From Minisyncoccota bacterium (GTDB lineage Bacteria > Patescibacteriota > Minisyncoccia > Phycocordibacterales > UBA2100): 64,000 bases of DNA. The stretch lies in the NCBI GenBank assembly GCA_022842645.1, contig JALHPE010000001.1:71711-135710 (forward strand). Direction: 5' to 3'. Numbering within the stretch: the stretch's first letter is position 1; each line of letters opens with the position of its first letter. The position numbers were made by a program, and so were the translations under genes. Shown one piece after another: positions 2,361 through 25,461 of the stretch. The notes beneath the pieces are model-generated. The model was given only the letters and a program-made list of their open reading frames with translations, did not search any database and was not told the DNA's origin.

Positions 2361-2464
2361 ATATTTTTCTGTTGGACATTTCCCTGTTCGCGAGACATAA
2401 ACGCTTCACTGGAGCGTTCGTGTCTGTCTAAGAGCGAAACATGATTCGCGCACGAGGCTGGTAC

Positions 2465-3110: not shown

Positions 3111-4178
3111 TCAACCAAATGTAAATGTAAATGCTTGTAAGCCTTTGCCGCGAACGCGTAGTTCAAGCGTATGCTCTTCCCCGCCCGGATTTCGTATGAG
3201 GTGGTAGAGATCCTCCTCTTGAATACGCACAACTCCCTCTTCGGAAACATCTGCGCCGCGGGCGGTGCGGAGCAGTACTCCATCCTGCCACACCTCAATT
3301 TCCACACCTTTCTGCGCACTTGCGACCATAAATACATCCTTCGCACGATAGCGGAAAATAATGCGCGCATCCTCGGACAGAGATTCCGCGTATTCGGGCT
3401 CTATATTCCATGTGCCCGTCAAATAGAGTGCATTTGCAACCGGCATCGTTGGCTCTTCAAATGATTGTGTTCCCGAGACCAGCCGTTTTGCTCCTGCCAA
3501 ACGCTCATTGCGCGCCGAGCCAAAATAGATCTCAGGACTTTGCGCGAAACGCTCTCCTTCAGGAATACCCTCTGCCGCAAGCGCTCCTGTTTCTGGCGCT
3601 CGCTCACCGAGTTTTTCAGCTCGCTCTCTAAGAGCGGCGCGAATCTTTTCTTCCGTCTCTTCGTACGCCCCTTCACCAATGTGATCATAAATAATATTCC
3701 CCTCGATATCGATGAGGTATTTGCGTGGCCAGTAGTTATTGCCGTAGGCACGCCAGGTTGCATAGTCGTTGTCCAAAACGACCGGAAACTCAATGTCGTA
3801 TTTTTTGAGGGCAGCGCGCACATTCTCGATATCTTTCTCAAACGCAAACTCGGGCGTGTGAATACCCACAATCTCGAGTCCTTCTCCTTGGTATTTTTCA
3901 TACCACGCATTGAGATATGGAAACGTGCGAATGCAATTGATGCAAGAATACGTCACGAAATCGACAAGGATAACCTTCTTCCCCACCAGCTCTCCAAGAG
4001 TAAAAGGTTCGGCATTAAGAAAGCCTGCAGGGCTCGCAATTTCTGCATACCGTTTTTCAGAGAATCCGAACGTTGGACGCGCAGTCTCGGGCATCTCCGG
4101 ATTCTGCAGAATGATGAACGCCGATGCGAGCACGCCCGTTGTTATGATGCCGCCTAAAAGCACGATCGGATTCTTCAT
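3111..4178 (-). CDS. Membrane-anchored TlpA/ResA-like thioredoxin-fold redoxin with a DipZ-type C-terminal domain
   Basis: N-terminal anchor, then CxxC motif (YSCINC) in a redoxin/AhpC-TSA-like fold, then a C-terminal beta-rich domain resembling the C-terminus of mycobacterial DipZ. The ATG at 4176-4178 overlaps the CcdA stop as ATGA. Confidence 0.75.
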   Translation of the reverse strand: MKNPIVLLGGIITTGVLASAFIILQNPEMPETARPTFGFSEKRYAEIASPAGFLNAEPFTLGELVGKKVILVDFVTYSCINCIRTFPYLNAWYEKYQGEGLEIVGIHTPEFAFEKDIENVRAALKKYDIEFPVVLDNDYATWRAYGNNYWPRKYLIDIEGNIIYDHIGEGAYEETEEKIRAALRERAEKLGERAPETGALAAEGIPEGERFAQSPEIYFGSARNERLAGAKRLVSGTQSFEEPTMPVANALYLTGTWNIEPEYAESLSEDARIIFRYRAKDVFMVASAQKGVEIEVWQDGVLLRTARGADVSEEGVVRIQEEDLYHLIRNPGGEEHTLELRVRGKGLQAFTFTFG

Positions 4179-7505: not shown

Positions 7506-8678
7506 CTACTCCTCACGCGGAATTATGCGAAAGACACGGTCGTCGTTTCGAGCGGCGGAGCCGCGGCCGTCGCGGTTCGAGGTGGTGAAGTATATGAAGC
7601 CGTCTCGGCCTTCTGTTACTTCGCGGATGCGACCATATTCTCCATCAAAAAGTTTTTCTTGTCCGCGCACACTATCTGGATTACTCGGATCAAACTGCAC
7701 ACGCCACAATCCCTCTCCCCGCAATGCGCCGAAAAAAAGATTGTTTTTGAATTGCGGGAATACTTTCCCAGAATACACGAGTGCCGAAGCCGGTGCTTCT
7801 GCAGGAGTATAGAGTGCTATTGACGCGATGGTACCCTCGCGTGTTTTTTCGTGCGAAACCAAGGGCCAGCCGTAATTCCCTCCTTTCACAATGCGATTCA
7901 CTTCATCTCCGCCACCTGCCCCGTCGAATCCGGAGGGACCATGTTCAGTTGAATAAAGGTTCCCTTCTCCATCCCACGAAATACCTTGTGGATTACGATG
8001 GCCATAACTCCAGATTGGCGAACCGGAAAATGGATTATCGCTCGGAACAGAACCGTCGTCGTTTATGCGGAGAATCTTTCCGGCGAGCGAATCCATATCC
8101 TGCGCAAGATCGCGATCAATCGCGTCACCTGTTGTGATATAGAGCTTCCCATCAGGACCAAATGAAAGCTCGCACCCGGCGTGATACTGCGCAGCGGGAA
8201 TGTTGTCGATGATCGTCGTTATATTTTCCGCACTTTCGCCCGCGTCGGTAAAGCGCACAATTTTTACAAACATATCTCCCGAGCGTTCGTATGCATAGGA
8301 GGCATAGACAAATTTGTTCTGTGCGTAGTTCGGGTGGAGCGCGAGTGACATTAAACCCTCTTCCCCGCCAGTCGAGACTTCAGGAAAAATGTGGAGCGGC
8401 TTAGCCGCAATCCGCCAGCCGGCGGAGCCATTTTCAACCATGCGAATACGCCCCGGTCGTTCGCTCACAAGCATGCGCGAATCCGAGGTAAACACAATCC
8501 CCCACGGCACTTCAAGTCCGCCCACCACTTCTTCAACTGTGTATGCAACTTCACGTTCTCCCATTGGCTCTATCGTAGCAGTTTTGTTTTGATAGAAAGG
8601 TGGAAGTTTTAACCAGTACACACTCGCCGAGAAAAGAATCGCAGCGGCAAACATCAAAACGAGTAGTGCGCGAATCAT
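7506..8678 (-). CDS. PQQ-dependent soluble sugar (aldose/sorbosone) dehydrogenase with N-terminal anchor
   Basis: Beta-propeller GSDH-family motifs including GGNYGWP. ATG at 8676-8678 precedes a hydrophobic anchor MIRALLVLMFAAAILF. The track's 467-aa form starts upstream at an alternative codon. Confidence 0.8.
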   Translation of the reverse strand: MIRALLVLMFAAAILFSASVYWLKLPPFYQNKTATIEPMGEREVAYTVEEVVGGLEVPWGIVFTSDSRMLVSERPGRIRMVENGSAGWRIAAKPLHIFPEVSTGGEEGLMSLALHPNYAQNKFVYASYAYERSGDMFVKIVRFTDAGESAENITTIIDNIPAAQYHAGCELSFGPDGKLYITTGDAIDRDLAQDMDSLAGKILRINDDGSVPSDNPFSGSPIWSYGHRNPQGISWDGEGNLYSTEHGPSGFDGAGGGDEVNRIVKGGNYGWPLVSHEKTREGTIASIALYTPAEAPASALVYSGKVFPQFKNNLFFGALRGEGLWRVQFDPSNPDSVRGQEKLFDGEYGRIREVTEGRDGFIYFTTSNRDGRGSAARNDDRVFRIIPREE

Positions 8679-9199
8679 TGAAACGTTGCGGAAGCAACGA
8701 CCTGCGCAAAATGCGTACGAATTGGGTCTTCGGGTGAGAGATGAGTGACTGAGAACGCATATATCTTGTCGCCGCGCGCCTGTGCAATCGTAGTGCCGGG
8801 ATAGAGGCCGTCCCACGCGAACGCGAGTGCTGACTCTGTTCCCACGAGCACCTCGGCTGGCGTACCGCCAGAAAGGCGAAAATTCGAGAGCGGCGACGAA
8901 CGGATCCATTCTTCCGTCGTTTGGTTCTGAGGATTGGGAATGACCTCCACGGTAATTGAGGTTGGTCCCTCACCCGCCTCGGGGAGTGGTAAATCTTTTT
9001 TGTTGATTAACGTGATGGTGTGGGTGCCCGCTTCGTCTCGCTCGCTCAACTCGTAGCCATCGGGATAGGAAAAAGAAATGCCGTGCACGTCCGAAGAATA
9101 CGTGTTCCCCGTTTGCACCGGTGCCTCAGCCGAACCCCACAAAAACCACCAGAGACCGAGCGCAGCCGCGACTACAAGAATGACCGCGGAATACTTCAT
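8675..9199 (-). CDS. Hypothetical secreted or anchored protein
   Basis: ATG at 9197-9199, signal-anchor MKYSAVILVVAAALGLWWFLWG, and a 4-nt ATGA overlap with the downstream dehydrogenase gene. Confidence 0.55.
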   Translation of the reverse strand: MKYSAVILVVAAALGLWWFLWGSAEAPVQTGNTYSSDVHGISFSYPDGYELSERDEAGTHTITLINKKDLPLPEAGEGPTSITVEVIPNPQNQTTEEWIRSSPLSNFRLSGGTPAEVLVGTESALAFAWDGLYPGTTIAQARGDKIYAFSVTHLSPEDPIRTHFAQVVASATFQ

Positions 9200-9861
9200 A
9201 CACTTACTTGTTCCTCCGCACTCACCTCTGGACGCATCCTGCGATACACGATGAGAAGAATGATGACCGACGCAAGAAGAAGAAGTGTGGTGACCACTGG
9301 CCAAAGAAGGAGTGGTGTTGTGTACGCCTCAAGCGCAGATTTCCCGAAAAATTCTGATTTGATGGTTGGGAGCGCACCAAAACGACTTATCACCTGCCCA
9401 AGTAAGAATCCGTCCTCGCCTTCAAAGACCAGTACATACGCCCCCTGATTGTCTGGGCTTGAAACCTGAATACGATATGAACCTGTGGTTACGGTGTTCT
9501 CTAACACCGGCCCTGCAAGGTAACTGTCGCGTCCGGAGGTATCGAAAAAACGCTGCCACTCGATCATGCCGCCATCCACACGCGCAAATGATTCTCCAGG
9601 ATTTTTATCTGAGATCATTTCTGCAACAATATCGGTGGAAACGTCCTCTGTATCTGGTGCAAGTACGACCGCCTTCACAGTGTAGCCGTCGCTGGGCACA
9701 TTAAAGGTAAATACGTGCGGCGAACCCGTGAGTTCACCGTAATACGCGCGATATACCTGTGGGTTGGAAACGCGCGTCTCGGCATTTTCAACAATAATAA
9801 GTTCCTGAGCACTGAGCGAAAGTGGCAGGACGAGCAAAAGTGCAAGAAAAATATGCTTCAT
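9196..9861 (-). CDS. Hypothetical secreted protein with a C-terminal transmembrane anchor
   Basis: ATG at 9859-9861. Signal peptide MKHIFLALLLVLPLSLSAQ and a C-terminal hydrophobic helix followed by YRRMRPE. ATGA overlap with the next gene. Confidence 0.55.
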   Translation of the reverse strand: MKHIFLALLLVLPLSLSAQELIIVENAETRVSNPQVYRAYYGELTGSPHVFTFNVPSDGYTVKAVVLAPDTEDVSTDIVAEMISDKNPGESFARVDGGMIEWQRFFDTSGRDSYLAGPVLENTVTTGSYRIQVSSPDNQGAYVLVFEGEDGFLLGQVISRFGALPTIKSEFFGKSALEAYTTPLLLWPVVTTLLLLASVIILLIVYRRMRPEVSAEEQVSV

Positions 9862-9932: not shown

Positions 9933-10883
9933 ATGGCTCAAAATATACTTATTACCGGCGTCGGCGGGTTTATTGGCTCCAATCTTGCACAGATGCTCCT
10001 CGATGAGGGGCACGAGGTTTTTGGTGTTGATAATTTTTCGACAGGTACAGAAGAAAATGTTGCACATCTCTCTGCTCACTCACGCTTTGCTTTTCATGAA
10101 ATAGACATTGCGAGCGTCGGATTTCGCGACATCTTTCAAGGGGTGCGCTTTGATGAGATCTATCATCTTGCGTGTCCTACCGGCGTCCCTAACCTCGTCA
10201 CTCTTGCCGAGGAAATGCTGCACGCCTGTTCATTTGGTACGTACAACGTACTCGACCGCGCTCGCAACGACGGCGCAAAGGTGCTCTTTACTTCAACCGC
10301 AGAAATGTATGGTCAGCCAGAAAAATTTCCTCAAGACGAAACCTACAATGGAAACGTTGACCCACTTGGGAAGCGTAGCCCCTACGAAGAAGGCAAACGA
10401 TTTTCAGAAAGTATTCTTGCGACCTACGTGCGCAAATATGGCCTTAATGCACGCGTGGTACGCGTGTTTAACACCTATGGTCCGGGAATGTCGCTAAACG
10501 ATGAGCGTGTCATTCCTCACTTTTTGAAATGCATTCTTGAGGGACGCCCTTTGCGCATCTACGGCGACGGATCACAAACGCGCTCGCACCTTTTTGTGAG
10601 TGATTTGTTAGCAGGGCTTCGTATTGCCATGGAGAAAGGTACACCGGGTGAGGCATACAACTGCGGCGGCGGGAATCCGATTCCTATTCGTGAGCTGGGA
10701 GAACTTTTGCTCGAGCTCTCAAGCCATCCGCATGGCATTGAACACCATGAACACTTCATCGAAGATCATCGCGGACGCCTTCCGGGTGTTGAAAAAATTG
10801 AGACGCTCGGATGGAAGCAAACCATTTCACTTGAAGAAGGATTGCAAAAAATGATCGCGCACTACCTCCCTGCCCGCACCTGA
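9933..10883 (+). CDS. NAD-dependent nucleotide-sugar epimerase/dehydratase (UDP-glucuronate decarboxylase / UXS-like)
   Basis: N-terminal Rossmann motif ILITGVGGFIGSNLAQML, the YxxxK catalytic region and overall SDR-extended layout. Confidence 0.8.
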   Translation: MAQNILITGVGGFIGSNLAQMLLDEGHEVFGVDNFSTGTEENVAHLSAHSRFAFHEIDIASVGFRDIFQGVRFDEIYHLACPTGVPNLVTLAEEMLHACSFGTYNVLDRARNDGAKVLFTSTAEMYGQPEKFPQDETYNGNVDPLGKRSPYEEGKRFSESILATYVRKYGLNARVVRVFNTYGPGMSLNDERVIPHFLKCILEGRPLRIYGDGSQTRSHLFVSDLLAGLRIAMEKGTPGEAYNCGGGNPIPIRELGELLLELSSHPHGIEHHEHFIEDHRGRLPGVEKIETLGWKQTISLEEGLQKMIAHYLPART

Positions 10884-10884
10884 T

Positions 10885-12537
10885 ATGGTCGGCATCTTCC
10901 AACTGCTCGGCGTAAGTTTTCTCTTCTGGACAGTCGTCGGATGCATACGATTTATATTTGAGCGTATTGAAGCACTTCGAAAACTTTCGGGTGAGGGTTC
11001 GACAGTTGCACTCCTTCTTGCCGCACTTTGCGGTGTCGGAGTTTCGCTCGGCATCTTCGTAGTCATCCTTTCGCTCTTCAATATTACCCGTGTTACTGAG
11101 CCCGGCGTGGGACTTGCGGTCTTTGTGCTCTGGGTTGGGTGCGCAGGGCTCGGCGCGTATGCAAGTGGACGCATTGATGCACGCCTCCCCAAAATCGCGG
11201 GCTTACTCTCAGGGCTCATAAGTTTTGTAGTTTTGGTACTCTCTCTTGGCAGAGCGCTTGGCGTCCCCGCGCTCGCAACCGATACACCACTTTCATTTGC
11301 AATCGGGCTTGGCTTATCACTCTGTATAGGGTTTTTTGCAGCAGTAATCGCTCGACACGTGAATGCGCGCGAAGAGAAACAACTCCTTGCACTGCGCGCA
11401 CATGTTGATGCAGCACGCATCACGAAAGACGAGATCGCAGTTCTTATTGCCGCACACAATGAAGAGGTGTCCATCTCCGCAACTATCGAATCACTCCTGC
11501 AATCCGTGCGTCCAGATCAGATCTACATCGGAAGCGATGGCTCGAAAGACAAAACGGTGGAGATCGCACGCTCATACGGCGTGCATGCGGATGACATCCA
11601 GCCCAATCGCGGGAAAGCGAGCGCACTCACGTATGTCATCGAAGAAAACGAACTTCTTACGAAGTACAAGGGAGTATTCCTCATTGACGCCGACATTAAG
11701 GTCGATCCTCTCTTTATTGAACGTGCTGCAAAACATTTTGATGACCCAGAAGTTGCGGCGGTCTCGGGTTATTTCGTCGCCATTTGGCCAGCGCACATCA
11801 TTCCTCGCTTGGAACTCCTCGTGACCGCCTATCGTGTGCGCCTCTGGAGAATACTCCAATTCTTTGTGCGCTACGGACAAACATGGAAATATCTCAATGT
11901 CTCCCCCATTATCCCTGGTGGCGGCTCAATCTATCGCACGAGTGTTTTAAAACATATTCAAATCAACACTCCGGGATTGGTGATTGAAGATTTCAACATG
12001 ACGTTCGAAGTGCGACATAAAAATCTCGGAAGAGTGTCATTCGAGCCGCGCGCCTATCTTTACGACCAAGAACCGTATTCTGTCAAAGATTTTGTTCACC
12101 AGATAAAAAGATGGTACCTGGGTTATTTTCAAACAATGCGTCGACACGGGTTCTGGTTTAGTTGGTTTTGTTTTTTCACCTACCTTTTCACGTTTGAGAT
12201 GCTTGTGAGCGCTATTGTGTTCCTCCTCACACCATTGATGGTACTTGAGCTTATTCTGAGCGGACGAGATTCTATCGTCGTTGATTTCGTGGTCTGGGGC
12301 TACCCCATCACACTCCTCACCATCGTGCTTGCAATATTTGTCGTTGATTACATCGTGACGATTGGCGTTGCGATTGTCGAAAAGAAACCACTCATGCTCG
12401 TGTATGGTGTCCTCTTTTACCCCTTAAGATTCATCGAATCCGCCGTGTTTCTCTGGATGCTCCCGCAGGCGTTTCGCGCAAAAAGCACCGGCAGTTGGGT
12501 CTCGCCAAAGCGTGTGATGTTTGAGGATAAAAAATGA
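10885..12537 (+). CDS. Polytopic family-2 glycosyltransferase (processive synthase-like, with N- and C-terminal transmembrane bundles)
   Basis: About 5 N-terminal helices, then a GT2 core (AVLIAAHNEE, GSDGSKD, DAD-like FLIDADI, QxxRW-like KRWYLGY), then C-terminal helices. Confidence 0.75.
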   Translation: MVGIFQLLGVSFLFWTVVGCIRFIFERIEALRKLSGEGSTVALLLAALCGVGVSLGIFVVILSLFNITRVTEPGVGLAVFVLWVGCAGLGAYASGRIDARLPKIAGLLSGLISFVVLVLSLGRALGVPALATDTPLSFAIGLGLSLCIGFFAAVIARHVNAREEKQLLALRAHVDAARITKDEIAVLIAAHNEEVSISATIESLLQSVRPDQIYIGSDGSKDKTVEIARSYGVHADDIQPNRGKASALTYVIEENELLTKYKGVFLIDADIKVDPLFIERAAKHFDDPEVAAVSGYFVAIWPAHIIPRLELLVTAYRVRLWRILQFFVRYGQTWKYLNVSPIIPGGGSIYRTSVLKHIQINTPGLVIEDFNMTFEVRHKNLGRVSFEPRAYLYDQEPYSVKDFVHQIKRWYLGYFQTMRRHGFWFSWFCFFTYLFTFEMLVSAIVFLLTPLMVLELILSGRDSIVVDFVVWGYPITLLTIVLAIFVVDYIVTIGVAIVEKKPLMLVYGVLFYPLRFIESAVFLWMLPQAFRAKSTGSWVSPKRVMFEDKK

Positions 12538-13443
12538 GTGGACATTTTAATTACAAAGCGTAAAGTTTCTTTGAAGAATATGGAAAATACCATCGATATA
12601 GATACGATCTACCCGAGAAACCTTCTTTATTGGGATCGCATGAGCTCGGCCGAAATTTCGGACTATCTTGTGCGCGTCCCTGCGGAGAAACGCCTCATCC
12701 TCATCGTCTGGGGTGTTATCGAGTCGCACGGACCCGCCTTGGGTCTTGGAAGCGACAGCATGCTCGCCGGGCTTGCTGCGGACGAAGCGGCGAGGCGCCT
12801 CTACGAAGAGAAAGGGCTTGAGCCAATCATTTTCGACGCGTGGAAAAATGTCGGGAGTCTCTCGGCAACGAGAAACTTTCCCGGCGCAATTGGATTCCAT
12901 TCCTCAGTACCTGTAATTCGAGAGATCTGGGAACAGACGCTTTCGCGCATGTTTAAGGAAGGGTTCTCAAAGTTCTTTTTGGTGAATGGCGACGGCGGCA
13001 ACTGGATGAATCACTGGTACGGCCTCAAGTGGGACTCTCCGGTGATTGATGCACTCTTGAAACAAGGCATGCAGCTTGAAGGTGGCAACTGGGATCAAGA
13101 AGGGGGTGCGCCGTACTTGCATGGCGGACACCACGAACACGCGCTCACAACGTGGGCGTGCTATCACGCTCCCGAGCACATCCGACTCTCGGCAATTCGC
13201 AATCGATTGCGAGCGCCAGATACGGAAATACTCAAGAAGATTGACGGGGCGAACTATGCCTACCTCGAAGATGTATCCCACCGCGAACACGACTGGAGCA
13301 CCTATCCCGATCAGGATCGCCTCCGCTCGGTGACCGAATTTTCGCTCGCTGAGTATCAGAAACTTCTTGATTCGGGCGACATTGGGAAAGACTTCGACGC
13401 AAAAATCGCGTGTCTCATGAAAAAAATCGAGGCGATGTTTTAA
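12538..13443 (+). CDS. Creatininase-family amidohydrolase-like protein
   Basis: VWGVIESHGPALGLGSD resembles the creatininase-family metal-binding motif GSxEQHGPHLPLxTD. The start is uncertain; an alternative Met lies at 12583. Confidence 0.55.
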   Translation: MDILITKRKVSLKNMENTIDIDTIYPRNLLYWDRMSSAEISDYLVRVPAEKRLILIVWGVIESHGPALGLGSDSMLAGLAADEAARRLYEEKGLEPIIFDAWKNVGSLSATRNFPGAIGFHSSVPVIREIWEQTLSRMFKEGFSKFFLVNGDGGNWMNHWYGLKWDSPVIDALLKQGMQLEGGNWDQEGGAPYLHGGHHEHALTTWACYHAPEHIRLSAIRNRLRAPDTEILKKIDGANYAYLEDVSHREHDWSTYPDQDRLRSVTEFSLAEYQKLLDSGDIGKDFDAKIACLMKKIEAMF

Positions 13444-13749
13444 GTACAAAACTGAACGAAGCCTTCTCAGGCTCCGTTTTTTATTGTTTCCTACTCTAGC
13501 CCAAGGAATGCACGCCTCGTAATGCGATCCTGTTCTCTAAGCCTCTTTTCCTTCGAGCGCTGCTTTGGGGTCCAGAGTCCGGCTAAAAGACCAAGAAAGA
13601 ACATGCTGATTGATTTCATTGACTTCCCTTTCTTCTAGAATGATTAGAACATAGTACTTGCTCCCGCACCGAGAAGCAAGGCTCATTTGCCTTGAGGGGC
13701 TGGTTGTGATTAAGTACCCTCCGGCTACAACAACAGAAAGAACTGAAAA

Positions 13750-14043
13750 ATGACACAGGCTGAATTTGTTGCAAACTACTGGCCATGGATCATCGGGACG
13801 CTTGGCGTCCTCAATCCCTGCTTCATGTTGCCCCAGCTCTACAAAATCTGGAGCAGCCGAAAAGCAGACGACGTGTCTCTAGCCATGCTTGGACTCCTCA
13901 TGTTGATTCAGTACGCGTTCTCATTGCACGGCTACTTCATCGGCGACAACCTGCTCCTCATGAGCAATCTCGCCGCTGGAACAGTGACCGTGATCACGGC
14001 GCTTTCTGTTTTGCATTTTGCTAAACGGACAGCAAGTACATGA
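13750..14043 (+). CDS. PQ-loop / SemiSWEET-like small transporter (3 transmembrane helices)
   Basis: 97 aa with three predicted helices and a PQ motif in helix 1 (FMLPQLYKIWSS). A terminator hairpin plus T-run lies immediately downstream. Confidence 0.6.
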   Translation: MTQAEFVANYWPWIIGTLGVLNPCFMLPQLYKIWSSRKADDVSLAMLGLLMLIQYAFSLHGYFIGDNLLLMSNLAAGTVTVITALSVLHFAKRTAST

Positions 14044-14048
14044 CCTTA

Positions 14049-14079
14049 CGGAGCCCCTCTCGGGCTCCGTTTGTTTTTT
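14049..14079 (+). terminator. Rho-independent terminator (8-bp GC stem cggagccc/gggctccg, loop ctctc, then TTTGTTTTTT)
   Basis: Read directly from the sequence, downstream of the SemiSWEET-like gene. Confidence 0.6.
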
Positions 14080-14153
14080 CCTGGGTGCATGATAGGTTGT
14101 TTGCAGTCCCCATAGGGGGCTTTTTTGTTGCAACAAAAAAGAAAGGACGTGTG

Positions 14154-14963
14154 ATGCAAAAACTACGCATCCTTGCAATTACTGGTCACGATGATGATCT
14201 CACTCTTCATTGCGGCGGGTTAATTATCGAGCTACTTGAGCGGGGCCACGAGATTACGCCGATCATCATGACACTCGGTCAACGTGGCCAGCGCTTTCCG
14301 CAGTTCGGAAATGGACTTGCATGGGAAGTACGAAAAGCAGAAACTCGCGCCGCGTACGCCACGATGGGCATGACGCCGAACTTCGTGCACACGAGGTATG
14401 AACAAGAATGTGACATCGACGCACGTAGCCGCGATGAGATGAAGCGACTCGTTGCAGATCTTGAACCGCACATGTTCCTCGCTCATTGGCCAGTCGACGT
14501 GAATCCAGATCATCGAGCAGGCGCAGTGCTTGCGATGGAACCTGCGTTCCAGCGCAATGTAAACACGGAGCTCATCTTCTTCAAGCCACACTCGGCTGGA
14601 CGGGAAACCGCGATGACGAGACCTCAGGTGACATGCTTCATCCCGACACACTATCTTCCACTACGAGAAGAGGTTATCGAGATAAAGCGCCGATCGGTTA
14701 TTCATCACGTGTCGCAAGACCCGGAGGCAATGCTGATTGGTCAGCAAAAAGTCCAAGAAGAAGACGCAGAAGAATTACGCGCACACTTTCCGAACTTCTT
14801 GCCGGGCGTTACGGAAGTCGAGGCGTACATTAGAGGAAATCGTGCCGGGGCACTGCTCCCAGAACTTGCCGATATTCTTTATCCGACGCCATATCTGTTA
14901 CCGAGAAGCGTTGTGCGACACGACCCCAAAGTCTATGGTGTCGATGCGCCTTCAACGCTGTGA
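14154..14963 (+). CDS. PIG-L/LmbE-family N-acetylglucosaminyl deacetylase
   Basis: ILAITGHDDDLTLHCGG corresponds to the PIG-L HPDDE zinc-binding motif region. ATG at 14154 is preferred over the track's upstream start. Confidence 0.7.
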   Translation: MQKLRILAITGHDDDLTLHCGGLIIELLERGHEITPIIMTLGQRGQRFPQFGNGLAWEVRKAETRAAYATMGMTPNFVHTRYEQECDIDARSRDEMKRLVADLEPHMFLAHWPVDVNPDHRAGAVLAMEPAFQRNVNTELIFFKPHSAGRETAMTRPQVTCFIPTHYLPLREEVIEIKRRSVIHHVSQDPEAMLIGQQKVQEEDAEELRAHFPNFLPGVTEVEAYIRGNRAGALLPELADILYPTPYLLPRSVVRHDPKVYGVDAPSTL

Positions 14964-15018
14964 CCGCACACAAGAATACGAGCGACGGGTTTCTTCGGAA
15001 ACCCGTCGCTTTCTTTTT

Positions 15019-16173
15019 CTACTCTCCGAGCACCTCGTAAATGCGCTCGTCTTCTCTGCCCTGGCGCCAGAACATGACACCCGCGACGCCAAATTCTTCG
15101 GCGAGAGAGAGGCGGGGCGTAAAGCTTTCTACGTTTTCAAACCAGACTTCCCGATTGACATCGTCTTTTCTATAGAAGAAATAGGGCGTTTGCGCCACTT
15201 CGTCAAAGAGCACATCGGCATCGTAGGTGTTCGCAATCTTTACAATATCCTCATACTCACGCCCTGTCGCCCGACCCCAACCATCACCTTCTTTGGGCCA
15301 ATCGTAGCCATAAAGCGGAATGCCCATAAAGATTTTTTGCATGTCGACGCCGAGAGAGCGAGCGTGCTCCAACACTTTGCGCACCCATGGGAGTGATGCA
15401 GGAGGCCCCGGCTCGCCGGTTTCCCAATGTTCGTCGTAGGTCATAAAGGAGAGAATATCGACATGCTTCTGGAGTGCTGGAATGTCTTGACCGCGTGTCT
15501 CTCCCCCTTCTGTTTGTGCATGGATAGCAACGGCAAGAAGCTTTCCTTCCGCACGAAGTGCTGTGCCTAATTCCTCGATGAAGAGTGTAAAGTCGTCCTT
15601 CTGGCGGTCGCGCAGAAATTCGTAGTCGATATTCACGCCGTCGAAATTTCCCTTTTCTATGAGCATGAGAATGTCGTTAATGTGTGCAGTACGACTCACC
15701 TCACTTTGGATGACGCGTTCCACAAGGTCAGGATCCCAATCATCATCTTCAGGAAGGTTCGCAATGAGTGCGAGCACTTTCACATCATTCTCATGTGCGA
15801 ACGTAATCAATGATGCATCTTCTTTTGCGTAATCATATTTCACGATGTTTCCTTGTGCATCGAGACGATACCAAAACACGGAAATGAAATCGAAAAGTTC
15901 GACGTGCTTTTTAAACATCGCAACCGCGCGCGGCTGATCCCAATACGGAATGGAGCCAAATATCTTTAATTCGGTAGCACGGATTACCTCATTCTTCGAG
16001 GACGGTTGAGCTATAATTGTACTCGCTGAAAGCTCAGGTGTAGACGTCGCTATGGTACGGCCTCCATGCGACGTGGGGGTTGGAGCCGGATCAGGGCGCA
16101 TGGCGAAAACAAACCATCCGGCATATATAAGCGCGATACCCGTTATCGCTAGGAGATAGTAGTCGCCACGCAT
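15019..16173 (-). CDS. GH18-family glycoside hydrolase (chitinase-like) with N-terminal membrane anchor
   Basis: The catalytic motif FDGVNIDYEF (DxxDxDxE) of family 18, plus an N-terminal hydrophobic helix. Confidence 0.7.
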   Translation of the reverse strand: MRGDYYLLAITGIALIYAGWFVFAMRPDPAPTPTSHGGRTIATSTPELSASTIIAQPSSKNEVIRATELKIFGSIPYWDQPRAVAMFKKHVELFDFISVFWYRLDAQGNIVKYDYAKEDASLITFAHENDVKVLALIANLPEDDDWDPDLVERVIQSEVSRTAHINDILMLIEKGNFDGVNIDYEFLRDRQKDDFTLFIEELGTALRAEGKLLAVAIHAQTEGGETRGQDIPALQKHVDILSFMTYDEHWETGEPGPPASLPWVRKVLEHARSLGVDMQKIFMGIPLYGYDWPKEGDGWGRATGREYEDIVKIANTYDADVLFDEVAQTPYFFYRKDDVNREVWFENVESFTPRLSLAEEFGVAGVMFWRQGREDERIYEVLGE

Positions 16174-16176
16174 ACT

Positions 16177-16989
16177 CTAATCGGTACTTGCGAGAATAGC
16201 ACGAGCCTCCGCCGGCGTAACGTTCATCAGAAGATCGATGATAGAAAGGTTACCGACAAATTCCCCCCCGAGTTGCGAATACGGGGAGAGCTTCCAGTTT
16301 TGCTCTTTGAGTGCAATGCCTGCCTGTTCAAACTTTGAGAAATCCATGTAGGCACCCGCTCCTGTGCCACCAAAATAGTATTCCTCCGCCTCGTACTTTT
16401 TACAGAGATCGACGAGCCAATCGTTTGCGTCGCGCCCAGATGCTTTGTCGGATGTTGTAACTCCGGATTCAGACGAGAGCACGATCTCACGGAGGCGAAA
16501 ATCTGCATGAGGCAGTGCGTCGTGTAGGTTTTTGAGATCAATGGTTGGAAGCTCGAAAAGCTGAGAGAGCGCCCACCCTATACTTGCGAGATCTATGTGT
16601 GCCACAGTCTCATACTCAGTTTCCCAAAAAGATTCAAGCGAAGGAAAAACGCGCGAAAACTGTGGCGCGTTCCGGTAGTGTTCGCGAATGATGCGTAGAT
16701 GCTTCGTGCGTTCTCTTTTATCAGCAAACCCGAGGTATGTTTCGTGTATAGCTTCATTTGCTTTGTGTTTTGTTGGAACATCGAGCATGAGAAGTCCTTT
16801 CACGCTTTTTATTGGCATGTGCGCCTGATATGAAGGGCCGATCGGATTCGAGCCGTCGGGCTTGTGGTAGGCGTGCTTGCGTACAAATTGCACATTGTCG
16901 GCAACGCTGAAGATGTCGGCATTCAAAATGCGCGCGAAATAATGGAGGCGCGGAAAATACTGCGGCTGGTATGAGACAAGGCGCTTCAT
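16177..16989 (-). CDS. WbqC-like family protein (polysaccharide biosynthesis associated)
   Basis: The N-terminal SYQPQYFPRLHYF resembles the WbqC-like signature. The start was moved to ATG 16987-16989. Confidence 0.6.
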   Translation of the reverse strand: MKRLVSYQPQYFPRLHYFARILNADIFSVADNVQFVRKHAYHKPDGSNPIGPSYQAHMPIKSVKGLLMLDVPTKHKANEAIHETYLGFADKRERTKHLRIIREHYRNAPQFSRVFPSLESFWETEYETVAHIDLASIGWALSQLFELPTIDLKNLHDALPHADFRLREIVLSSESGVTTSDKASGRDANDWLVDLCKKYEAEEYYFGGTGAGAYMDFSKFEQAGIALKEQNWKLSPYSQLGGEFVGNLSIIDLLMNVTPAEARAILASTD

Positions 16990-16990
16990 G

Positions 16991-17704
16991 CTAAATAAAC
17001 ATACGACGCAGGAGAAACGCTTCTGCCGCATCGCACCCCGCATGAATACCCCGCATGTGCGCAAGCGTGCGCGCTCCCTCAACAGAAATCGGACCGTTCT
17101 TCACTTTCATTTGGCTTTTGTAGATCGAAAGTGCTTTTAATTTAAGCGCGAGCGTTTTGTGATCCATGGATACAAAAATATTCGGCGTTGGCTTATCTGC
17201 CTCACTTGTCCATGTAAAATAAGGAAATTCATATTCCAAAACCGTCGGCACAAAATGTTTATAGTGCCCCGGCACCGGGCGCGTTGCAGTGATTGCTGCA
17301 CGATTTGCAGCACGGTGATCTTGGTTGTAATCGTGCGCAGAAGGAATTGCGAGGGTGGTCGGCTTTATCGCCTCAAGCGAAATGCCTTCACCTCGCTCAA
17401 TTTCATTAATGAGCACTTTTTGAGGCACAGCATCAAGTTGCAAGTGGTAATCATTTCCTGGAAACGCGACTTTGTAGCCATCGAAGCGCATAAGCTTTGC
17501 AACACGCGCTATTTCTTTCATCCGCTCCTCGATTGTGGATTGCCCTTTCTTTGAAAAGTCCTTAGTGGTGCCGACGGTAAGATAGAGCACAAACACCTTG
17601 CCGCCTGCTTCTTTAACACGACGAATAAGACCCCCACAGCCAAAAATTTCATCGTCGGGATGGGGTGCAACAACCAAGAGTGTACGATCTTTGGGGAACG
17701 ACAT
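16991..17704 (-). CDS. PIG-L/LmbE-family deacetylase
   Basis: LLVVAPHPDDEIFGCGG is the canonical PIG-L motif. Confidence 0.8.
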   Translation of the reverse strand: MSFPKDRTLLVVAPHPDDEIFGCGGLIRRVKEAGGKVFVLYLTVGTTKDFSKKGQSTIEERMKEIARVAKLMRFDGYKVAFPGNDYHLQLDAVPQKVLINEIERGEGISLEAIKPTTLAIPSAHDYNQDHRAANRAAITATRPVPGHYKHFVPTVLEYEFPYFTWTSEADKPTPNIFVSMDHKTLALKLKALSIYKSQMKVKNGPISVEGARTLAHMRGIHAGCDAAEAFLLRRMFI

Positions 17705-17846
17705 ACCGGAGGGCGCTCAAAGCGCGCCAGCCTGTGTTCCCCTCACAGTGGTGGCAGTATAGCCATCTATCCACAACTCGACAAGGATTGGAATATGTGG
17801 GAAATGGTGGTACTGTGCCCCTTAAGGGGAAACCGGCGAAATCGCC

Positions 17847-19178
17847 GTGGTGCAAATTCAGGAAAAAGACATTCAGACTGACGCCGTCGGACTTCCGGTT
17901 CCGACCGCTGTTTTTAATGTTGCAGTGATTGGCCTTGGTTACGTTGGACTTCCGCTTGCACTTCTTGCAAGCAGAAAGGGTCATCGGGTTATTGGCATTG
18001 ACATCAGCGAGCGAAAAATCGCGAGCATCAGGGGCGGTGTATCACCTTTTTACGACGAAAAAATACAAAAACACTTGGACGCAAAACCACTCGACGTGGA
18101 CACAAATTTTGCCCGCCTACGCGAGAGTGAGATTATCGTTGTCTGCGTGCCCACACCAGTACATGAAGATCATCTTCCCGACCTCACCCCTCTCTCGGGT
18201 GCGTGCGAATCAATTGCGCCACATTTAAAGAAGGGTTCGCTTGTCGTAATTGAATCAACGGTGAATCCGGGTGTATGCGATACGATCGTGATACCTGCGC
18301 TTGAAAAGCATTCGGGACTCAGGGCGGGCGTGGATTTCCTTGTCTCCCACTGCCCGGAGCGCGTGAACCCTGGAGACGAACGCTGGAGTGTCGAGAACAT
18401 CAATCGTGTGGTGGGGTCACTTACGCCCGAGGGATTAGAAAAAACACTTTTTTTCTACCGCTCTATCGTGCGCGGTGAGGTTCGCCCCATGGGATCCCTT
18501 AAAGAAGCCGAGGCGGTGAAGATTGTTGAGAACACGTTTCGTGACGTGAATATTGCATTCGTGAACGAACTCGCACTTTCGTTCGATAAGCTCGGGATTG
18601 ATGTCGTCAATGTTATTGAAGCAGCTTCCACAAAGCCATTCGCCTTTATGCCACACTTTCCCTCGTGTGGCGTCGGCGGTCACTGCATTCCGGTTGATCC
18701 GTACTACCTGATCGAAGAAGGGCGGCGCAATGGCTTCGAACACGAATTCCTTTCACTCGCGCGCTCAATCAACAATCGCATGCCAGTGCACACCGTAAAT
18801 CTCCTTGCGCGCACTCTTGAAGAGCACAACGAAGAACTTCGAGGCGCACGCATCGCGGTGCTTGGCCTTGCATATAAATCTGACATCGACGACACGCGCG
18901 AGAGCCCTGCGCGCATCATACTCAAAGAACTCACCGTGCGTGGCGCAGAACCTGTTCCCTACGACCCGTTCGTAAAAGGCGAGGGCGCTGCATCTCTCGA
19001 AGAAGCACTCAAAGGCGCACGCGGGGCGATTGTCGCTACATCACATCGCGCCTTCCGCTCACTTTCACCTGAAGATTTCCTAAAACACAACGTGCGCGTC
19101 GTGATTGATGGTAAAAACTGTCTCCCTAAGCAGGTCTTTCTCGACGCAGGTATCCACTATCGCGGGATTGGGCGCTAA
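17847..19178 (+). CDS. Nucleotide-sugar dehydrogenase (UDP-glucose / UDP-N-acetyl-mannosamine 6-dehydrogenase family)
   Basis: AVIGLGYVGLPLALLA N-terminal Rossmann fold and a central catalytic Cys region. The true start may be an internal GTG near 17925. Confidence 0.85.
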   Translation: MVQIQEKDIQTDAVGLPVPTAVFNVAVIGLGYVGLPLALLASRKGHRVIGIDISERKIASIRGGVSPFYDEKIQKHLDAKPLDVDTNFARLRESEIIVVCVPTPVHEDHLPDLTPLSGACESIAPHLKKGSLVVIESTVNPGVCDTIVIPALEKHSGLRAGVDFLVSHCPERVNPGDERWSVENINRVVGSLTPEGLEKTLFFYRSIVRGEVRPMGSLKEAEAVKIVENTFRDVNIAFVNELALSFDKLGIDVVNVIEAASTKPFAFMPHFPSCGVGGHCIPVDPYYLIEEGRRNGFEHEFLSLARSINNRMPVHTVNLLARTLEEHNEELRGARIAVLGLAYKSDIDDTRESPARIILKELTVRGAEPVPYDPFVKGEGAASLEEALKGARGAIVATSHRAFRSLSPEDFLKHNVRVVIDGKNCLPKQVFLDAGIHYRGIGR

Positions 19179-20831: not shown

Positions 20832-22322
20832 TTATTCAGCTGATCCCATTTCAAATCCCACAATCACCTGCATACCGGGCTTCAAGCGGTCATCTGGCTT
20901 CGGAAAACTAATTGTTGCTTCGAAAACAACGATGCCATCCTCGTCTTTCTTCCCTACTGCGTCCATTTCCTTCACTACACCGGGAACTGAAATGTCGGTT
21001 CCTTCTACTGACACAAGCACGCGGGTACCCACATTCACGCGCGCAGCTTCCCCTTGCATGAGGGTGATGTGCACGTTCTCTTCGCTTGCAACAAGGAGCG
21101 CAACAGTCTCGCCGTCATCAACATACTGCGCCGCGCGTTTGTCGAGACGTGCAATCGTGCCCGCAAATGGTGCATGCAATTCATAGTATGCAAGACGCGC
21201 CTGTGCTTCTTCAAGAGCGAGTTCGGCGCGCTGTATTTCAAGCGCAGCGCTCTCGGGGGATGAGACTTCGATCGACGCTTCACCGCTCAAAACTGCACGC
21301 GCCGCCTCCACCAAAGAACGCGTACCGCCTACGATACTTTCTTGATCGCGCACCTGGGCACTATAATTTGCCAAAGACTCTTCGTAGATTTCAAACACTG
21401 ACGGGGCGGCATACCCGAACGACCCACGGTGTTTTTTTATAAATGAAAATAATTCTTCGGTCGCATCGAAAGCATTTCCCAGCGTTTGAAGCATCTCATG
21501 AGTCGTGATGATAAGACGTTCTCGCTCAGAATCGCTTGGATTTGGTTCTCTATGAAATAATGCGAATGCGGACTCGTACGCACGCTTTGCTTTAATATAT
21601 TCGTCTCCGGCACGCGCAATGAGGGGACTAATCGCTTCATTGTCAGCCTCAATAGTGCCCGCGTGTGCCATCAGATAATCACTTTCGTCTCCAAATCCTC
21701 CTCCGCCGTAGAGCATGCCCGAGAGTCCCGAAACCACGTCGGGAAGAAGAGGGAGTATGCCGGTAATTTCTTGGTGTCCTTCAATGAGCGCAATCCCAAG
21801 TTGCGCAGATGCCTCGTTGCGTGTCGCAGAATCAAGAGAAAGTGCAGAAACAGCGGCACTTGCATTCAAGCGCGCAGAAAGTCGCGCGGCTGCAAGAGAT
21901 ATCTCTGCAGAACGCACCAAACGACGCATATCGGTATCATCAAGACGCAGAATGACGCCATCCGCGTCGACAGAATCACCAACGCGCAGCGTTTCTTCTA
22001 TAACTCCGCCAGTATGCACTGAAAGCGCAAGCTCGCGCGCCGACACAACCTCCCCTTCCACAGAAATACCGGAAAGGACGATGGGGTTTTCTTGAATAAC
22101 TACCGACCCACTCACTGCCGCAAGGAGTGCCGAACGGAGCGCGCCAAGATTTTCAGCCCCGGCGAATGCATATACCGTCCCCACTCCAAAAACGCCAATC
22201 CCAAGAGCCACTGCCACACGAGCGGCGTAGGTGATATGCGCATAGCGATCTAAAAGGTTCTTTGCCCTGATACCGAATGCACGCCCTTGTTTCTGAAGCG
22301 CTTTAATGTGTGGGAGCCGCAT
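20832..22322 (-). CDS. HlyD-family membrane-fusion (periplasmic adaptor) protein, orphan
   Basis: N-terminal helix, a long coiled-coil, and a C-terminal beta-barrel-like region. No ABC or RND partner is adjacent. Confidence 0.6.
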   Translation of the reverse strand: MRLPHIKALQKQGRAFGIRAKNLLDRYAHITYAARVAVALGIGVFGVGTVYAFAGAENLGALRSALLAAVSGSVVIQENPIVLSGISVEGEVVSARELALSVHTGGVIEETLRVGDSVDADGVILRLDDTDMRRLVRSAEISLAAARLSARLNASAAVSALSLDSATRNEASAQLGIALIEGHQEITGILPLLPDVVSGLSGMLYGGGGFGDESDYLMAHAGTIEADNEAISPLIARAGDEYIKAKRAYESAFALFHREPNPSDSERERLIITTHEMLQTLGNAFDATEELFSFIKKHRGSFGYAAPSVFEIYEESLANYSAQVRDQESIVGGTRSLVEAARAVLSGEASIEVSSPESAALEIQRAELALEEAQARLAYYELHAPFAGTIARLDKRAAQYVDDGETVALLVASEENVHITLMQGEAARVNVGTRVLVSVEGTDISVPGVVKEMDAVGKKDEDGIVVFEATISFPKPDDRLKPGMQVIVGFEMGSAE

Positions 22323-24662: not shown

Positions 24663-25460
24663 TCAACTCACGGTTTCGGCGCTGTAGCGAGCGAGGAGGC
24701 CGGTGCGCACCGCGCGGCGGTACGTGCGGTAAAGCACGAGGTACGCAAGTGTGCAGTAGAAAAACGCGAGCAATATTCCTGGGATGAAATATGAGAATGA
24801 GACACCTCCCCCAGCTAACACGGTACGGAGTCCTTCAAACACATACGTCGAAGGTAATGCTGTTGCAACTACTTGCATCCACTCGGGCAACACAGTGATT
24901 GGATAAAACACACCCGCAAACGGCGCAATAATCGCGGGAAGCGGCCAAATAAACCACTCTGCGGATGGGCCAAAACGTAACACAATGGCAACGCCGAGAA
25001 TGCCGAGTGCGATACCCAAGAGAAACAGAGTGATAAGAAATGGAAACGCTGCGGCACCGTAGGAAAGAATGGAGAAATCAAATACGACACTCGCAAACAA
25101 GATAACCGCAGCAAAACTGATCGTCGTCGTAGCAATCGATGATGTGATCATGCCGAGCACATATTCAAATAGTGAAAGTGGTGAGGCAAAAATATTCAAG
25201 AAATTACGCGACCATACATCTTCGAAAAACGTGATGGTGACACCGTACATCGCGCGCACCAAAAACTCCCAGAGAATAATGCCCCCGAGAAACGCCACCG
25301 CAAATTGCGCCTCCGCAACATCGGCAAGATAGACGCTGATGAATCCCCAGAGCGTAATTTCAAGGAGCGACCATACGAAAAGCTGCGACAGTCGTGTGGG
25401 ATTGTGTCGAATAAGGTAATACTGCCTGAGGAGGATTCCTGAGATACGGGAGAGAGGCAT
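24663..25460 (-). CDS. ABC-2 type transporter permease
   Basis: Six hydrophobic helices. ATG at 25458-25460 lies 1 nt after the ATPase stop. Confidence 0.7.
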   Translation of the reverse strand: MPLSRISGILLRQYYLIRHNPTRLSQLFVWSLLEITLWGFISVYLADVAEAQFAVAFLGGIILWEFLVRAMYGVTITFFEDVWSRNFLNIFASPLSLFEYVLGMITSSIATTTISFAAVILFASVVFDFSILSYGAAAFPFLITLFLLGIALGILGVAIVLRFGPSAEWFIWPLPAIIAPFAGVFYPITVLPEWMQVVATALPSTYVFEGLRTVLAGGGVSFSYFIPGILLAFFYCTLAYLVLYRTYRRAVRTGLLARYSAETVS

Positions 25461-25461
25461 A

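Follow-up and report, generated by a model that had tools for sequence, protein, structure and literature searches.

Among described systems, those closest to the gene cluster considered here are the synthase-dependent polysaccharide systems HasA/HasB, PgaABCD/IcaADBC and BcsA/BcsZ, together with two routes to unusual or pentose-containing glycans. In Bacillus cereus, two enzymes named UGlcNAcDH and UXNAcS, with products named accordingly, form a pathway from UDP-N-acetylglucosamine (UDP-GlcNAc) to UDP-N-acetylxylosamine (UDP-XylNAc) (PMC5078965). In the APS cluster of Sinorhizobium, uxs1-uxe-apsS-apsE-apsH, an enzyme of the UDP-xylose synthase (UXS) type is combined with cluster-encoded machinery for a pentose-containing exopolysaccharide (PMC12560781). 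The WbqC family, which will appear repeatedly below, is uncharacterised and has no known activity (PMC5532660). Here we describe nine genes at positions 9,933 to 19,178 of a 64,000-nucleotide stretch (the window) from contig JALHPE010000001.1 of a Minisyncoccota bacterium, which include a glycosyltransferase family 2 (GT2) synthase, a WbqC-family protein and two PIG-L deacetylases. Their clustering is real and conserved, and the bacterium is an ultra-small member of the candidate phyla radiation (CPR, or Patescibacteria). Most likely, to judge from sequences and structural models, the cluster serves an amino-sugar surface polymer built and exported by a hyaluronan-synthase-like membrane enzyme. 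The donor sugars probably derive from UDP-GlcNAc and not from UDP-glucose, as a first-pass annotation of the same DNA had assumed. No description of such a cluster was found in the searchable literature under the topics of WbqC, XylNAc/pzX, CPR glycan clusters and PIG-L with WbqC.

The reality of the cluster is seen in its recurrence. One genome per GTDB species was scanned and 80 loci encoding a relative of the GT2 were kept; these are the best tblastn matches and not a random sample, and their open reading frames (ORFs) were then searched with the window proteins. Within 10 kb of the GT2 gene, the short-chain dehydrogenase/reductase (SDR) is found in 73 of the 80 loci, WbqC and PIG-L in 45 each, the nucleotide-sugar dehydrogenase in 40 and the glycoside hydrolase of family 18 (GH18) in 29, with all five present in 12. 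The complete six-gene core (dehydrogenase, decarboxylase-type SDR, GT2, GH18, WbqC and PIG-L) occurs, in differing gene orders, in CPR bacteria (Paceibacteria, Curtissbacteria, Levybacteria), in metagenome-assembled genomes of Gammaproteobacteria and in Actinobacteria. A Paceibacterota genome whose GT2 is 44% identical has the SDR, GT2, GH18, two WbqC genes, PIG-L and dehydrogenase together, and Paceibacteria with GT2s 44–47% identical retain the full set; rhizobia have the dehydrogenase, SDR and GT2 only. The named hosts of GT2 relatives are Candidatus Parcubacteria, Paceibacterota and other CPR groups, which assigns the window to a CPR genome, most likely one of the Paceibacteria. The same genes are found together in distant genomes, and their grouping is not due to chance. 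The remaining three genes, coding for a creatininase-like protein, a SemiSWEET-like protein and a second PIG-L protein, are absent as a set from the closest sampled genome (L007, GT2 77% identical) and recur as accessories in other Paceibacteria. This recurrence in other CPR clusters makes the nine genes one recurrent system of six core and three accessory genes. An origin of the creatininase-like, SemiSWEET-like and first PIG-L genes by an insertion restricted to this genome was rejected because members of the trio recur in loci L088, L089 and L090.

The GT2 synthase is the center of the system. Its motifs D218, D268-A-D270, E368-D369 and Q406-I-K-R409-W410 are invariant or at least 90% conserved in 40 homologues and align with the motifs of PgaC. 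The catalytic domain is flanked by five N-terminal and two or three C-terminal membrane helices, seven hydrophobic segments being predicted. The best Foldseek matches of its AlphaFold2 model (pLDDT 88.7) are the hyaluronan synthase (HAS) of a Chlorella virus (CvHAS, E-value 2e-12, TM-score about 0.5) and Xenopus XlHAS1, followed by BcsA and yeast Chs1; PcManGT, a mannosyltransferase similar to dolichol-phosphate mannose synthase (DPMS), ranks well below them. The sequence search against PDB proteins gave no match, and the nearest curated GT2 family, PgaC/IcaA (TIGR03937), is scored at 71.1 bits for a cut-off of 422.3, with 25% identity to E. coli PgaC. By its sequence and predicted fold, the enzyme is of the processive type of the cellulose/chitin/hyaluronan class and not a polyprenol-phosphate transferase; it would work in a HAS- or PgaC-like manner while standing outside every named synthase family, and the fold and motifs suggest processivity, a channel and export. 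The first-pass annotation had described a polytopic GT2 with cellulose/chitin/hyaluronan-synthase-like topology, and the motifs, the transmembrane helices and the model fold agree with that description. A possible grouping with dolichol- or undecaprenyl-phosphate transferases was also considered, and the GT2 groups with the processive synthases instead. Residues 536–543 (positions 12490–12515), in the cytoplasmic C-terminal tail, hold a G-x-W-x-x-P-x-R motif with a possible regulatory or gating role; all 40 homologues keep it unchanged, and the model has low confidence in this region.

The nature of the donor sugars depends on two enzymes. The dehydrogenase scores 390.9 bits with TIGR03026 (cut-off 189.8) and is 34% identical to B. 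cereus UGlcNAcDH (233 bits by phmmer), 31% to WecC and 22% to E. coli Ugd; among PDB proteins, 4r16 and Cap5O score 279 and 238 bits, and UDP-glucose dehydrogenases (UGDHs) at most 129. Models of UDP-ManNAc and UDP-GlcNAc dehydrogenases outscore those of UDP-glucose dehydrogenases for this protein and for the cluster dehydrogenases of four other lineages. The scores with Ugd-type equivalogs stay far below their cut-offs (PRK15057 58 vs 757, TuaD 139.5 vs 700, AglM 201 vs 670), and none of the substrate-specific equivalog cut-offs of NCBIfam is reached by the dehydrogenase, or by the cluster dehydrogenases and SDRs of other phyla. In neighbour-joining trees, calculated without support values, every cluster dehydrogenase falls on the side of the experimentally characterised B. 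cereus UDP-GlcNAc 6-dehydrogenase, far from Ugd. The B. cereus sequences were rebuilt from the supplement of PMC5078965, in which a few frameshifts were patched by frame. The non-Paceibacteria cluster dehydrogenases are nearest to the B. cereus enzyme (35–43% identical in the sampled set), and the Paceibacteria clade of the window protein lies outside them and inside WecC. By sequence, therefore, the enzyme belongs to the UDP-N-acetylhexosamine (UDP-HexNAc) dehydrogenase clade, grouping with WecC, Cap5O, TviB and UGlcNAcDH, with UDP-GlcNAc as its likely substrate, and the label "UGDH" given to it at first is abandoned. UDP-ManNAcA was discarded as the favoured product, as no 2-epimerase was found among the Pfam-scanned window ORFs of at least 300 aa; the argument is weak, the 64 kb being part of a genome.

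The second enzyme, the SDR, has human UXS1 as its best solved relative (229 bits, 41% identity). Its motifs STAEMYG, YEEGK and SQTR align with STSEVYG, YDEGK and SQTR of UXS1, so that the catalytic Thr, Glu, Tyr, Lys and Arg are kept, and it is 32% identical to B. cereus UXNAcS (119 bits) and 26% to the C-terminal domain of ArnA. Thus the UXS-like character proposed in the first-pass annotation is confirmed, and by these sequence features the protein is a genuine UXS-type decarboxylase. The SDRs linked to GT2 fall into two groups: those of CPR, Gammaproteobacteria and Alphaproteobacteria are a clade sister to UXS, and those of Actinobacteria group with UXNAcS, scoring 197–251 bits with the B. 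cereus enzyme at 36–42% identity; all retain the (S/T)xE, YxxxK and Q(T/R)R signature. The linkage of the SDR to a HexNAc-clade dehydrogenase and its replacement by a UXNAcS-like enzyme in Actinobacteria argue, although not decisively, for UDP-N-acetylglucosaminuronic acid (UDP-GlcNAcA) as its substrate. With a UDP-GlcNAc-type dehydrogenase feeding the decarboxylase, and a UXNAcS-like enzyme in the same slot elsewhere, we favor the route UDP-GlcNAc to UDP-GlcNAcA to UDP-XylNAc; UDP-glucuronic acid (UDP-GlcA) and UDP-xylose (UDP-Xyl), the output first proposed, are not favored given the clade of the dehydrogenase and the UXNAcS kinship of the actinobacterial SDRs. The window encodes GlmS (glutamine-fructose-6-phosphate aminotransferase) and hence the means to make glucosamine-6-phosphate, the first committed precursor on the way to UDP-GlcNAc. 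It also encodes BacA/UppP, by which the organism recycles undecaprenyl phosphate.

Another part of the core is the pair formed by PIG-L no. 2 and WbqC, which are translationally coupled here; of the 45 loci having both, 40 have them side by side on one strand. PIG-L no. 2 has the motifs HPDDE and HDYNQDH, and its nearest solved relatives are TT1542 and diacetylchitobiose deacetylase. As regards the distinction between LmbE- and BshB-type enzymes raised in the first-pass annotation, both PIG-L proteins of the locus are generic LmbE-like ones and not BshB/MshB, with scores well below the equivalog cut-offs (BshB1 50.9 and 38.2 vs 182.5; BshB2 37.4 and 29.3 vs 195.25). Prediction finds neither signal peptides nor transmembrane segments in the two of them, and WbqC is also predicted to be cytoplasmic. 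WbqC, modelled with a pLDDT of 92.7 by AlphaFold2, has no solved relative by PDB sequence, profile or Foldseek searches (best E-value 0.09), and about 11,000 relatives were counted among 1.84 billion representative proteins. In some of them (P0361, P0410 and probably P0357; 385–395 aa) an N-terminal GNAT acetyltransferase is fused to WbqC, and P0274 and P0297 are tandem double WbqC proteins, similar to the paired WbqC genes of L005, L088 and L089.

The contexts in which PIG-L and WbqC occur without the GT2 synthase are informative about their role. Three were found, on two plasmids and in one pseudaminic-acid cluster. In B. mycoides KBAB4 (L091, plasmid pBWB401, 312921–323666), the pair stands with genes for a dehydrogenase that scores 354 bits with B. 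cereus UGlcNAcDH, for an SDR and for proteins of the DegT aminotransferase and FemAB families, and M. branderi plasmid pJCM12687 (L097) has a near-identical operon with GNAT. The content of these two operons comprises a dehydrogenase, DegT, SDR, aminotransferase, FemAB or GNAT, WbqC, PIG-L and a transporter of the major facilitator superfamily (MFS), the latter directly after PIG-L in M. branderi and two genes further in B. mycoides. Such a gene content suggests an uncharacterised route to amino-pentoses or amino-uronates, perhaps one that serves a small molecule. As the pair occurs in nucleotide-sugar pathways without GT2, we think that it remodels precursors, and does not perform a chitosan-style deacetylation of the finished polymer; from sequence comparison, it would act on an activated amino sugar and rewrite the N-acyl group of this sugar ahead of polymerisation. 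Known polymer deacetylases, PgaB and IcaB, are extracytoplasmic enzymes of carbohydrate esterase family 4 (CE4), a family of which the Pfam scan found no member in the locus. PIG-L proteins devoid of signal peptide and transmembrane segment would have an exported polymer out of reach. Thus, of the remodelling role first attributed to the PIG-L enzymes, the family assignment stands, and deacetylation of a finished polymer is made less likely by the cytoplasmic location of the pair and its presence in GT2-free pathways.

The core is completed by the GH18 hydrolase. A single transmembrane helix (residues 7–25) followed by a Pro/Thr/Ser linker places its catalytic domain outside the cell. The best solved relatives, at 96–125 bits, are two uncharacterised GH18s (4wiw and 5jh8), YdhD, YaaH and SleL, with ChiB at about 35 bits, and the score with ChiD_Serratia is 33.5 bits for a cut-off of 750. 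The enzyme called a chitinase-family member in the first-pass annotation therefore keeps its GH18 family and resembles YdhD/YaaH/SleL instead of classical chitinases. In its catalytic motif DGVNIDYE the D-x-E pair is kept and the second Asp of DxxDxDxE is Asn; DG(I/V)(N/D)IDYE predominates in the 32 cluster-linked GH18s, most of which have Asn or Asp at that position, and the catalytic D-x-E is conserved among them. Catalysis by GH18 enzymes uses the 2-acetamido group of the substrate, so a 2-acetamido sugar in beta linkage is expected in the substrate. We infer, from the parallel with BcsZ, PgaB and PslG, that this GH18 is the cognate hydrolase of the polymer. In Mesorhizobium sp. AR02 (L087, plasmid, 1–4106), a DUF3131 protein of 943 aa, and not a GH18, comes after a GT2 relative with 44% identity. 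A DUF3131 protein in the place of GH18 suggests a different cognate hydrolase and a different polymer in the rhizobial branch.

As to the accessory genes, the creatininase-like protein scores far below the Creatininase (27.2 vs 235) and MftE (27 vs 172) equivalogs. It has ESHG and GSD metal-site motifs and NGDGGN for NGHGGN, with one metal-ligand His replaced by Asp. Of 31 homologues found, three were read directly in the CPR GT2 clusters L088, L089 and L090. The creatininase family assigned to it at first is upheld by the Pfam score; its role was then called unclear, and it is a recurrent accessory, not a stray gene. The 97-aa protein scores below family cut-offs with SemiSWEET_2 (30.6 bits vs 80, NCBIfam) and PQ-loop (18.8 vs 22, Pfam). 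It carries a LPQLYKIWSSRKADDVSL motif, and its PQ motif and length fit a SemiSWEET, but only two segments, and not three, exceed the hydrophobicity threshold; a homologue (121 bits) is at the same position in L088. It was also considered as a PgaD/IcaD analogue, a candidate rejected for showing no similarity to PgaD. PIG-L no. 1 has the motifs GHDDD and NPDH, its nearest solved relative is diacetylchitobiose deacetylase (38.7 bits), and its orthologues score 227 bits in L088 and 181 bits in L089.

A mechanism can be proposed on this basis. The dehydrogenase, whose family is clear, would oxidize a UDP-hexose at C6, most likely converting UDP-GlcNAc into UDP-GlcNAcA, and the SDR, with its decarboxylase signature, would then produce a UDP-pentose, most likely UDP-XylNAc. 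PIG-L no. 2 would de-N-acetylate the activated amino sugar before a step performed by WbqC, as their conserved linkage, the other clusters and the GNAT-WbqC fusions suggest. The GT2, as an inverting enzyme of the QxxRW type, would form a beta-linked chain from the donor or donors, and perhaps from housekeeping UDP-GlcNAc as well, and would thread this chain through its own membrane channel; fold and motifs are seen directly, and they make processivity and export plausible. Outside the cell, the membrane-tethered GH18 would cut or trim 2-acetamido-sugar linkages of the polymer, playing a part like that of BcsZ, PgaB or PslG. The SemiSWEET-like protein, PIG-L no. 1 and the creatininase-like protein would be an optional module for uptake and de-acylation of released sugars, which is speculative. 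That the locus is a self-contained synthase-dependent surface-glycan system, making a beta-linked polymer from UDP-GlcNAc-derived donors (GlcNAcA/XylNAc), is a reading in which our confidence and our doubt are evenly balanced. A more specific version is put forward tentatively, and we think it rather doubtful as a whole: a beta-linked chain of XylNAc and/or GlcNAcA, that is, a chitin-like polymer without C6 or C6-oxidised, whose N-acyl groups are rewritten before polymerisation by PIG-L and WbqC, WbqC being a new fold for N-remodelling of amino sugars, and the module being shared horizontally among CPR, Actinobacteria and Proteobacteria and serving as an envelope or attachment glycan in genome-reduced episymbionts.

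Other readings have to be weighed. One of them, which follows the first-pass annotation, is a chitin-like or chito-oligosaccharide GlcNAc polymer, brought to a chitosan-like form by PIG-L deacetylation, with a UGDH/UXS pair giving UDP-GlcA and UDP-Xyl for a hyaluronan-like copolymer or a side decoration. A GlcNAc-type polymer is plausible, and the kinship of the SDR with human UXS1 including all catalytic residues, the hyaluronan synthases as top structural matches of the GT2, the polymerisation of GlcNAc by the nearest curated family, the action of the GH18 and PIG-L families on GlcNAc, and the glucose-specific CalS8 and AglM within the dehydrogenase clade speak for that proposal. Nevertheless, we think it unlikely in this form: the dehydrogenase is distant from Ugd and HexNAc models always outrank the UDP-glucose ones, UXNAcS-like SDRs fill the same slot in actinobacterial clusters, and neither PIG-L protein has a signal peptide or a transmembrane segment. 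That predicted location, and the strict pairing of PIG-L with WbqC, would suit a scheme recalling Nod factors or glycosylphosphatidylinositol (GPI). In it, a short HexNAc oligosaccharide or a glycolipid made by the GT2 at the cytoplasmic side of the membrane is de-N-acetylated by PIG-L no. 2, as it would be by NodB or eukaryotic PIG-L, then acylated by WbqC or with its help, in a role like that of NodA, and finally exported and cleaved by GH18. GNAT or FemAB acyltransferases fused to or preceding WbqC elsewhere, the QxxRW motif set common to NodC and an ABC-2 transporter 5 kb off agree with it. This scheme seems improbable to us, since the GT2 has 7–8 transmembrane helices in a HAS/BcsA-like channel architecture (TM-score about 0.5), the PIG-L/WbqC pair in GT2-free nucleotide-sugar pathways points to UDP- or CMP-sugar substrates and not to GT2 products, and the cluster has no acyl carrier or acyl-activating gene. 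Very improbable, in our opinion, is that the GH18, and perhaps the PIG-L enzymes, serve a YdhD/SleL-type peptidoglycan turnover and stand beside an unrelated glycan synthase by shared ancestry only. The spore-cortex lytic YaaH and SleL, plus YdhD, are indeed among the best solved relatives of the GH18, but the gene shares an operon with WbqC and recurs by GT2 in three phyla in varied gene orders, a linkage that vertical inheritance alone is not expected to give.

Some points weigh against the exported polymer from UDP-GlcNAc-derived donors that we prefer. The cluster is known here through its genes and predicted structures. By sequence, the dehydrogenase clade also includes the glucose-using CalS8 and AglM and no equivalog cut-off is reached, so UDP-GlcA and UDP-Xyl keep some probability as products, and the window SDR scores nearer to the canonical UDP-GlcA decarboxylase than to UXNAcS. 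NodC shares the QxxRW motif set, and NodC-type GT2s have these motifs but produce short cytoplasmic oligomers. The rhizobial relatives combine dehydrogenase, SDR and GT2 with DUF3131, so products probably differ within the family. Another feature listed with these points is the MxYD motif of GH18: in chitinases its Asp touches the O6 atom of the sugar bound at subsite -1, this Asp is variable among the cluster GH18s, and the variability speaks neither for nor against a substrate without C6.

All nine ORFs were confirmed at their coordinates in the first-pass annotation, apart from adjusted starts (Table 1). Eight of the nine genes exceed Pfam gathering cut-offs, GT2 and GH18 among them, so that the families assigned to eight genes in the first-pass annotation hold; the exception to the cut-offs is the 97-aa SemiSWEET-like membrane protein. 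The start of WbqC is ATG 16989, fixed from homologues, and not TTG 17082, and the creatininase-like ORF opens at GTG 12538, with ATG 12580 as the start in gene calls and homologues. PIG-L no. 1 may start at Met39, because terminator-like hairpins at 14048–14121 fall inside the long ORF. The SDR, GT2 and creatininase-like genes form a first plus-strand unit with gaps of 1 nt and then 42 nt, and the SemiSWEET-like gene and PIG-L no. 1 form a second one. A strong bidirectional terminator separates two convergent operons. On the minus strand, PIG-L no. 2, WbqC and GH18 follow in this order with closely joined ends: the stop of PIG-L no. 2 and the start of WbqC abut, and 4 nt separate the WbqC stop from the start of GH18. 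PIG-L no. 2, the first gene of this operon, is preceded by a promoter-like site, and the dehydrogenase gene diverges from the operon. The base composition of the cluster is uniform with its flanks.

Table 1. Genes and signals of the cluster and other features of the window (bits as score, with Pfam cut-off where given).
Feature	Position	Strand	Length and scores
UXS-type extended SDR	9933–10883	+	316 aa; Pfam Epimerase 182.6 bits
GT2 synthase	10885–12537	+	550 aa; Glyco_trans_2_3 56.9, Glycos_transf_2 54.7 bits
Creatininase-family metal amidohydrolase, divergent	12580–13443	+	287 aa; Pfam Creatininase (PF02633) 56.2 bits, cut-off 31.3
PQ-loop/SemiSWEET-like membrane protein, putatively three-helix	13750–14043	+	97 aa; family scores below cut-off
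PIG-L/LmbE deacetylase no. 1	14040–14963	+	Pfam PIG-L 55.1 bits, cut-off 28.2; alternative start Met39 at 14154
Bidirectional terminator hairpin	14980–15011		13–14 bp stem, 8 G-C pairs, T-runs on both strands
GH18 hydrolase	15019–16173	-	384 aa; Pfam GH18 110 bits, cut-off 29.6
WbqC-family protein	16177–16989	-	270 aa; Pfam WbqC (PF08889) 138.2 bits, cut-off 21.3
PIG-L/LmbE deacetylase no. 2	16991–17704	-	237 aa; Pfam PIG-L 69.6 bits, cut-off 28.2
Promoter-like site	17784–17756	-	
Nucleotide-sugar 6-dehydrogenase	17850–19178	+	442 aa; three Pfam domains 144, 100, 70 bits
BacA/UppP	776–1615	-	
Hypothetical membrane/secreted protein	8675–9304	-	no Pfam match
Hypothetical membrane/secreted protein	9196–9861	-	no Pfam match
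HlyD-like membrane-fusion protein	20832–22322	-	
ABC-2 transporter	24663–26196		
Second HlyD-family protein, MacB-type permease, ABC ATPase	45535–49073	-	permease FtsX + MacB_PCD
GlmS	49094–50941	-	
Low-GC island	53908–61535	-	GC 0.42–0.45
SMC_N/AAA_21 ATPase	53908–56358		816 aa
N6_Mtase fused to two Methylase_S domains	56517–59015		
HsdR-like protein	59019–61535		

Some neighbors of the cluster are also conserved. The HlyD-like membrane-fusion protein encoded just beyond the dehydrogenase is found by the cluster in two other Paceibacteria (L005, 17948–19402; L007, 18639–20171), and no counterpart was seen in the clusters of other phyla. Directly upstream of the SDR are two genes for hypothetical membrane or secreted proteins; both are kept at that position in L007 and one is present in L005. 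Farther away, a second HlyD-family protein, a MacB-type permease and an ABC ATPase make up a tripartite-style efflux set in a CPR cell presumed to have a single membrane. An island of low GC content, compared with about 0.51 elsewhere, encodes a type I restriction-modification system and an SMC_N/AAA_21 ATPase, and it is probably an acquired defence island.

Many CPR lineages with tiny genomes and dependence on host contact retain this cluster of about 9 kb. Its retention in spite of such genomes makes its product a likely important component of the envelope or of attachment, in organisms whose surfaces are almost unknown. The cluster would tie a rare branch of metabolism, that of UDP-GlcNAcA and UDP-XylNAc, to a hyaluronan-synthase-like enzyme. 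Moreover, WbqC, a large uncharacterised family, gains a testable context, always with a PIG-L deacetylase and sometimes fused to GNAT. An experimental route to the polymer is offered by the module of culturable Actinobacteria and by the reduced version (dehydrogenase, SDR and GT2) of rhizobia.

When the locus is compared with known systems, its nearest counterparts are found by synthase and by donor pathway. With HasA/HasB, PgaABCD/IcaADBC and BcsA/BcsZ it shares one polytopic GT2 with D, DxD, ED and QxxRW motifs and a fold matching HAS, BcsA and Chs. A dedicated UDP-sugar dehydrogenase stands alongside, as hasB does, and a putatively cognate glycoside hydrolase in the locus recalls BcsZ and the C-terminal domain of PgaB. 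In contrast to the PgaC/IcaA and cellulose systems, the locus is without PgaD/IcaD, CE4 deacetylase, BcsB and PilZ; the GT2 has an extra five-helix N-terminal membrane domain and the hydrolase is a GH18, whereas the HAS, Pga and Bcs systems have no counterpart to the cytoplasmic PIG-L and WbqC or to the UXS-type decarboxylase. The UDP-XylNAc pathway of B. cereus resembles the locus in that a dehydrogenase from the same clade has a decarboxylase-type SDR as its partner in glycan synthesis genes, and actinobacterial clusters carry UXNAcS-like SDRs, but the window SDR is a UXS sister. Moreover, the pzX polymer is reported (Li et al. 2016) to have alpha linkages, which imply retaining transferases; the synthase here is of the inverting type, and thus beta linkages would be expected.

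Likenesses of a more partial kind exist with three other systems. The APS cluster also brings a UXS-type enzyme and glycan machinery together in one cluster; it has no dehydrogenase, GH18, PIG-L or WbqC, and the window cluster has no second epimerase SDR. Homology of the synthase to ApsS of S. meliloti was rejected, as no Sinorhizobium plasmid is among the tblastn matches listed for the plasmid collection. NodC-NodB-NodA offers the same succession of a QxxRW GT2, a de-N-acetylase and an enzyme of unique fold tied to N-acylation, although here the deacetylase is PIG-L and not CE4, WbqC is unrelated to NodA as far as testable, and the membrane domain of the GT2 is much larger. The Arn pathway for 4-amino-4-deoxy-L-arabinose (L-Ara4N) similarly combines a dehydrogenase, a UXS-like decarboxylase, a GT2, one or more amidohydrolases and a small membrane protein, but aminotransferase, formyltransferase and GT-C are missing here and the GT2 is HAS-like instead of ArnC/DPMS-like. 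With these partner enzymes missing and the wrong type of GT2, an Arn-like pathway was rejected. What is familiar in this locus is the architecture of the synthase; what is unfamiliar is the accessory set that surrounds it, in which a UXS-type decarboxylase, a HexNAc-type dehydrogenase and an anchored GH18 are brought together with PIG-L and WbqC.

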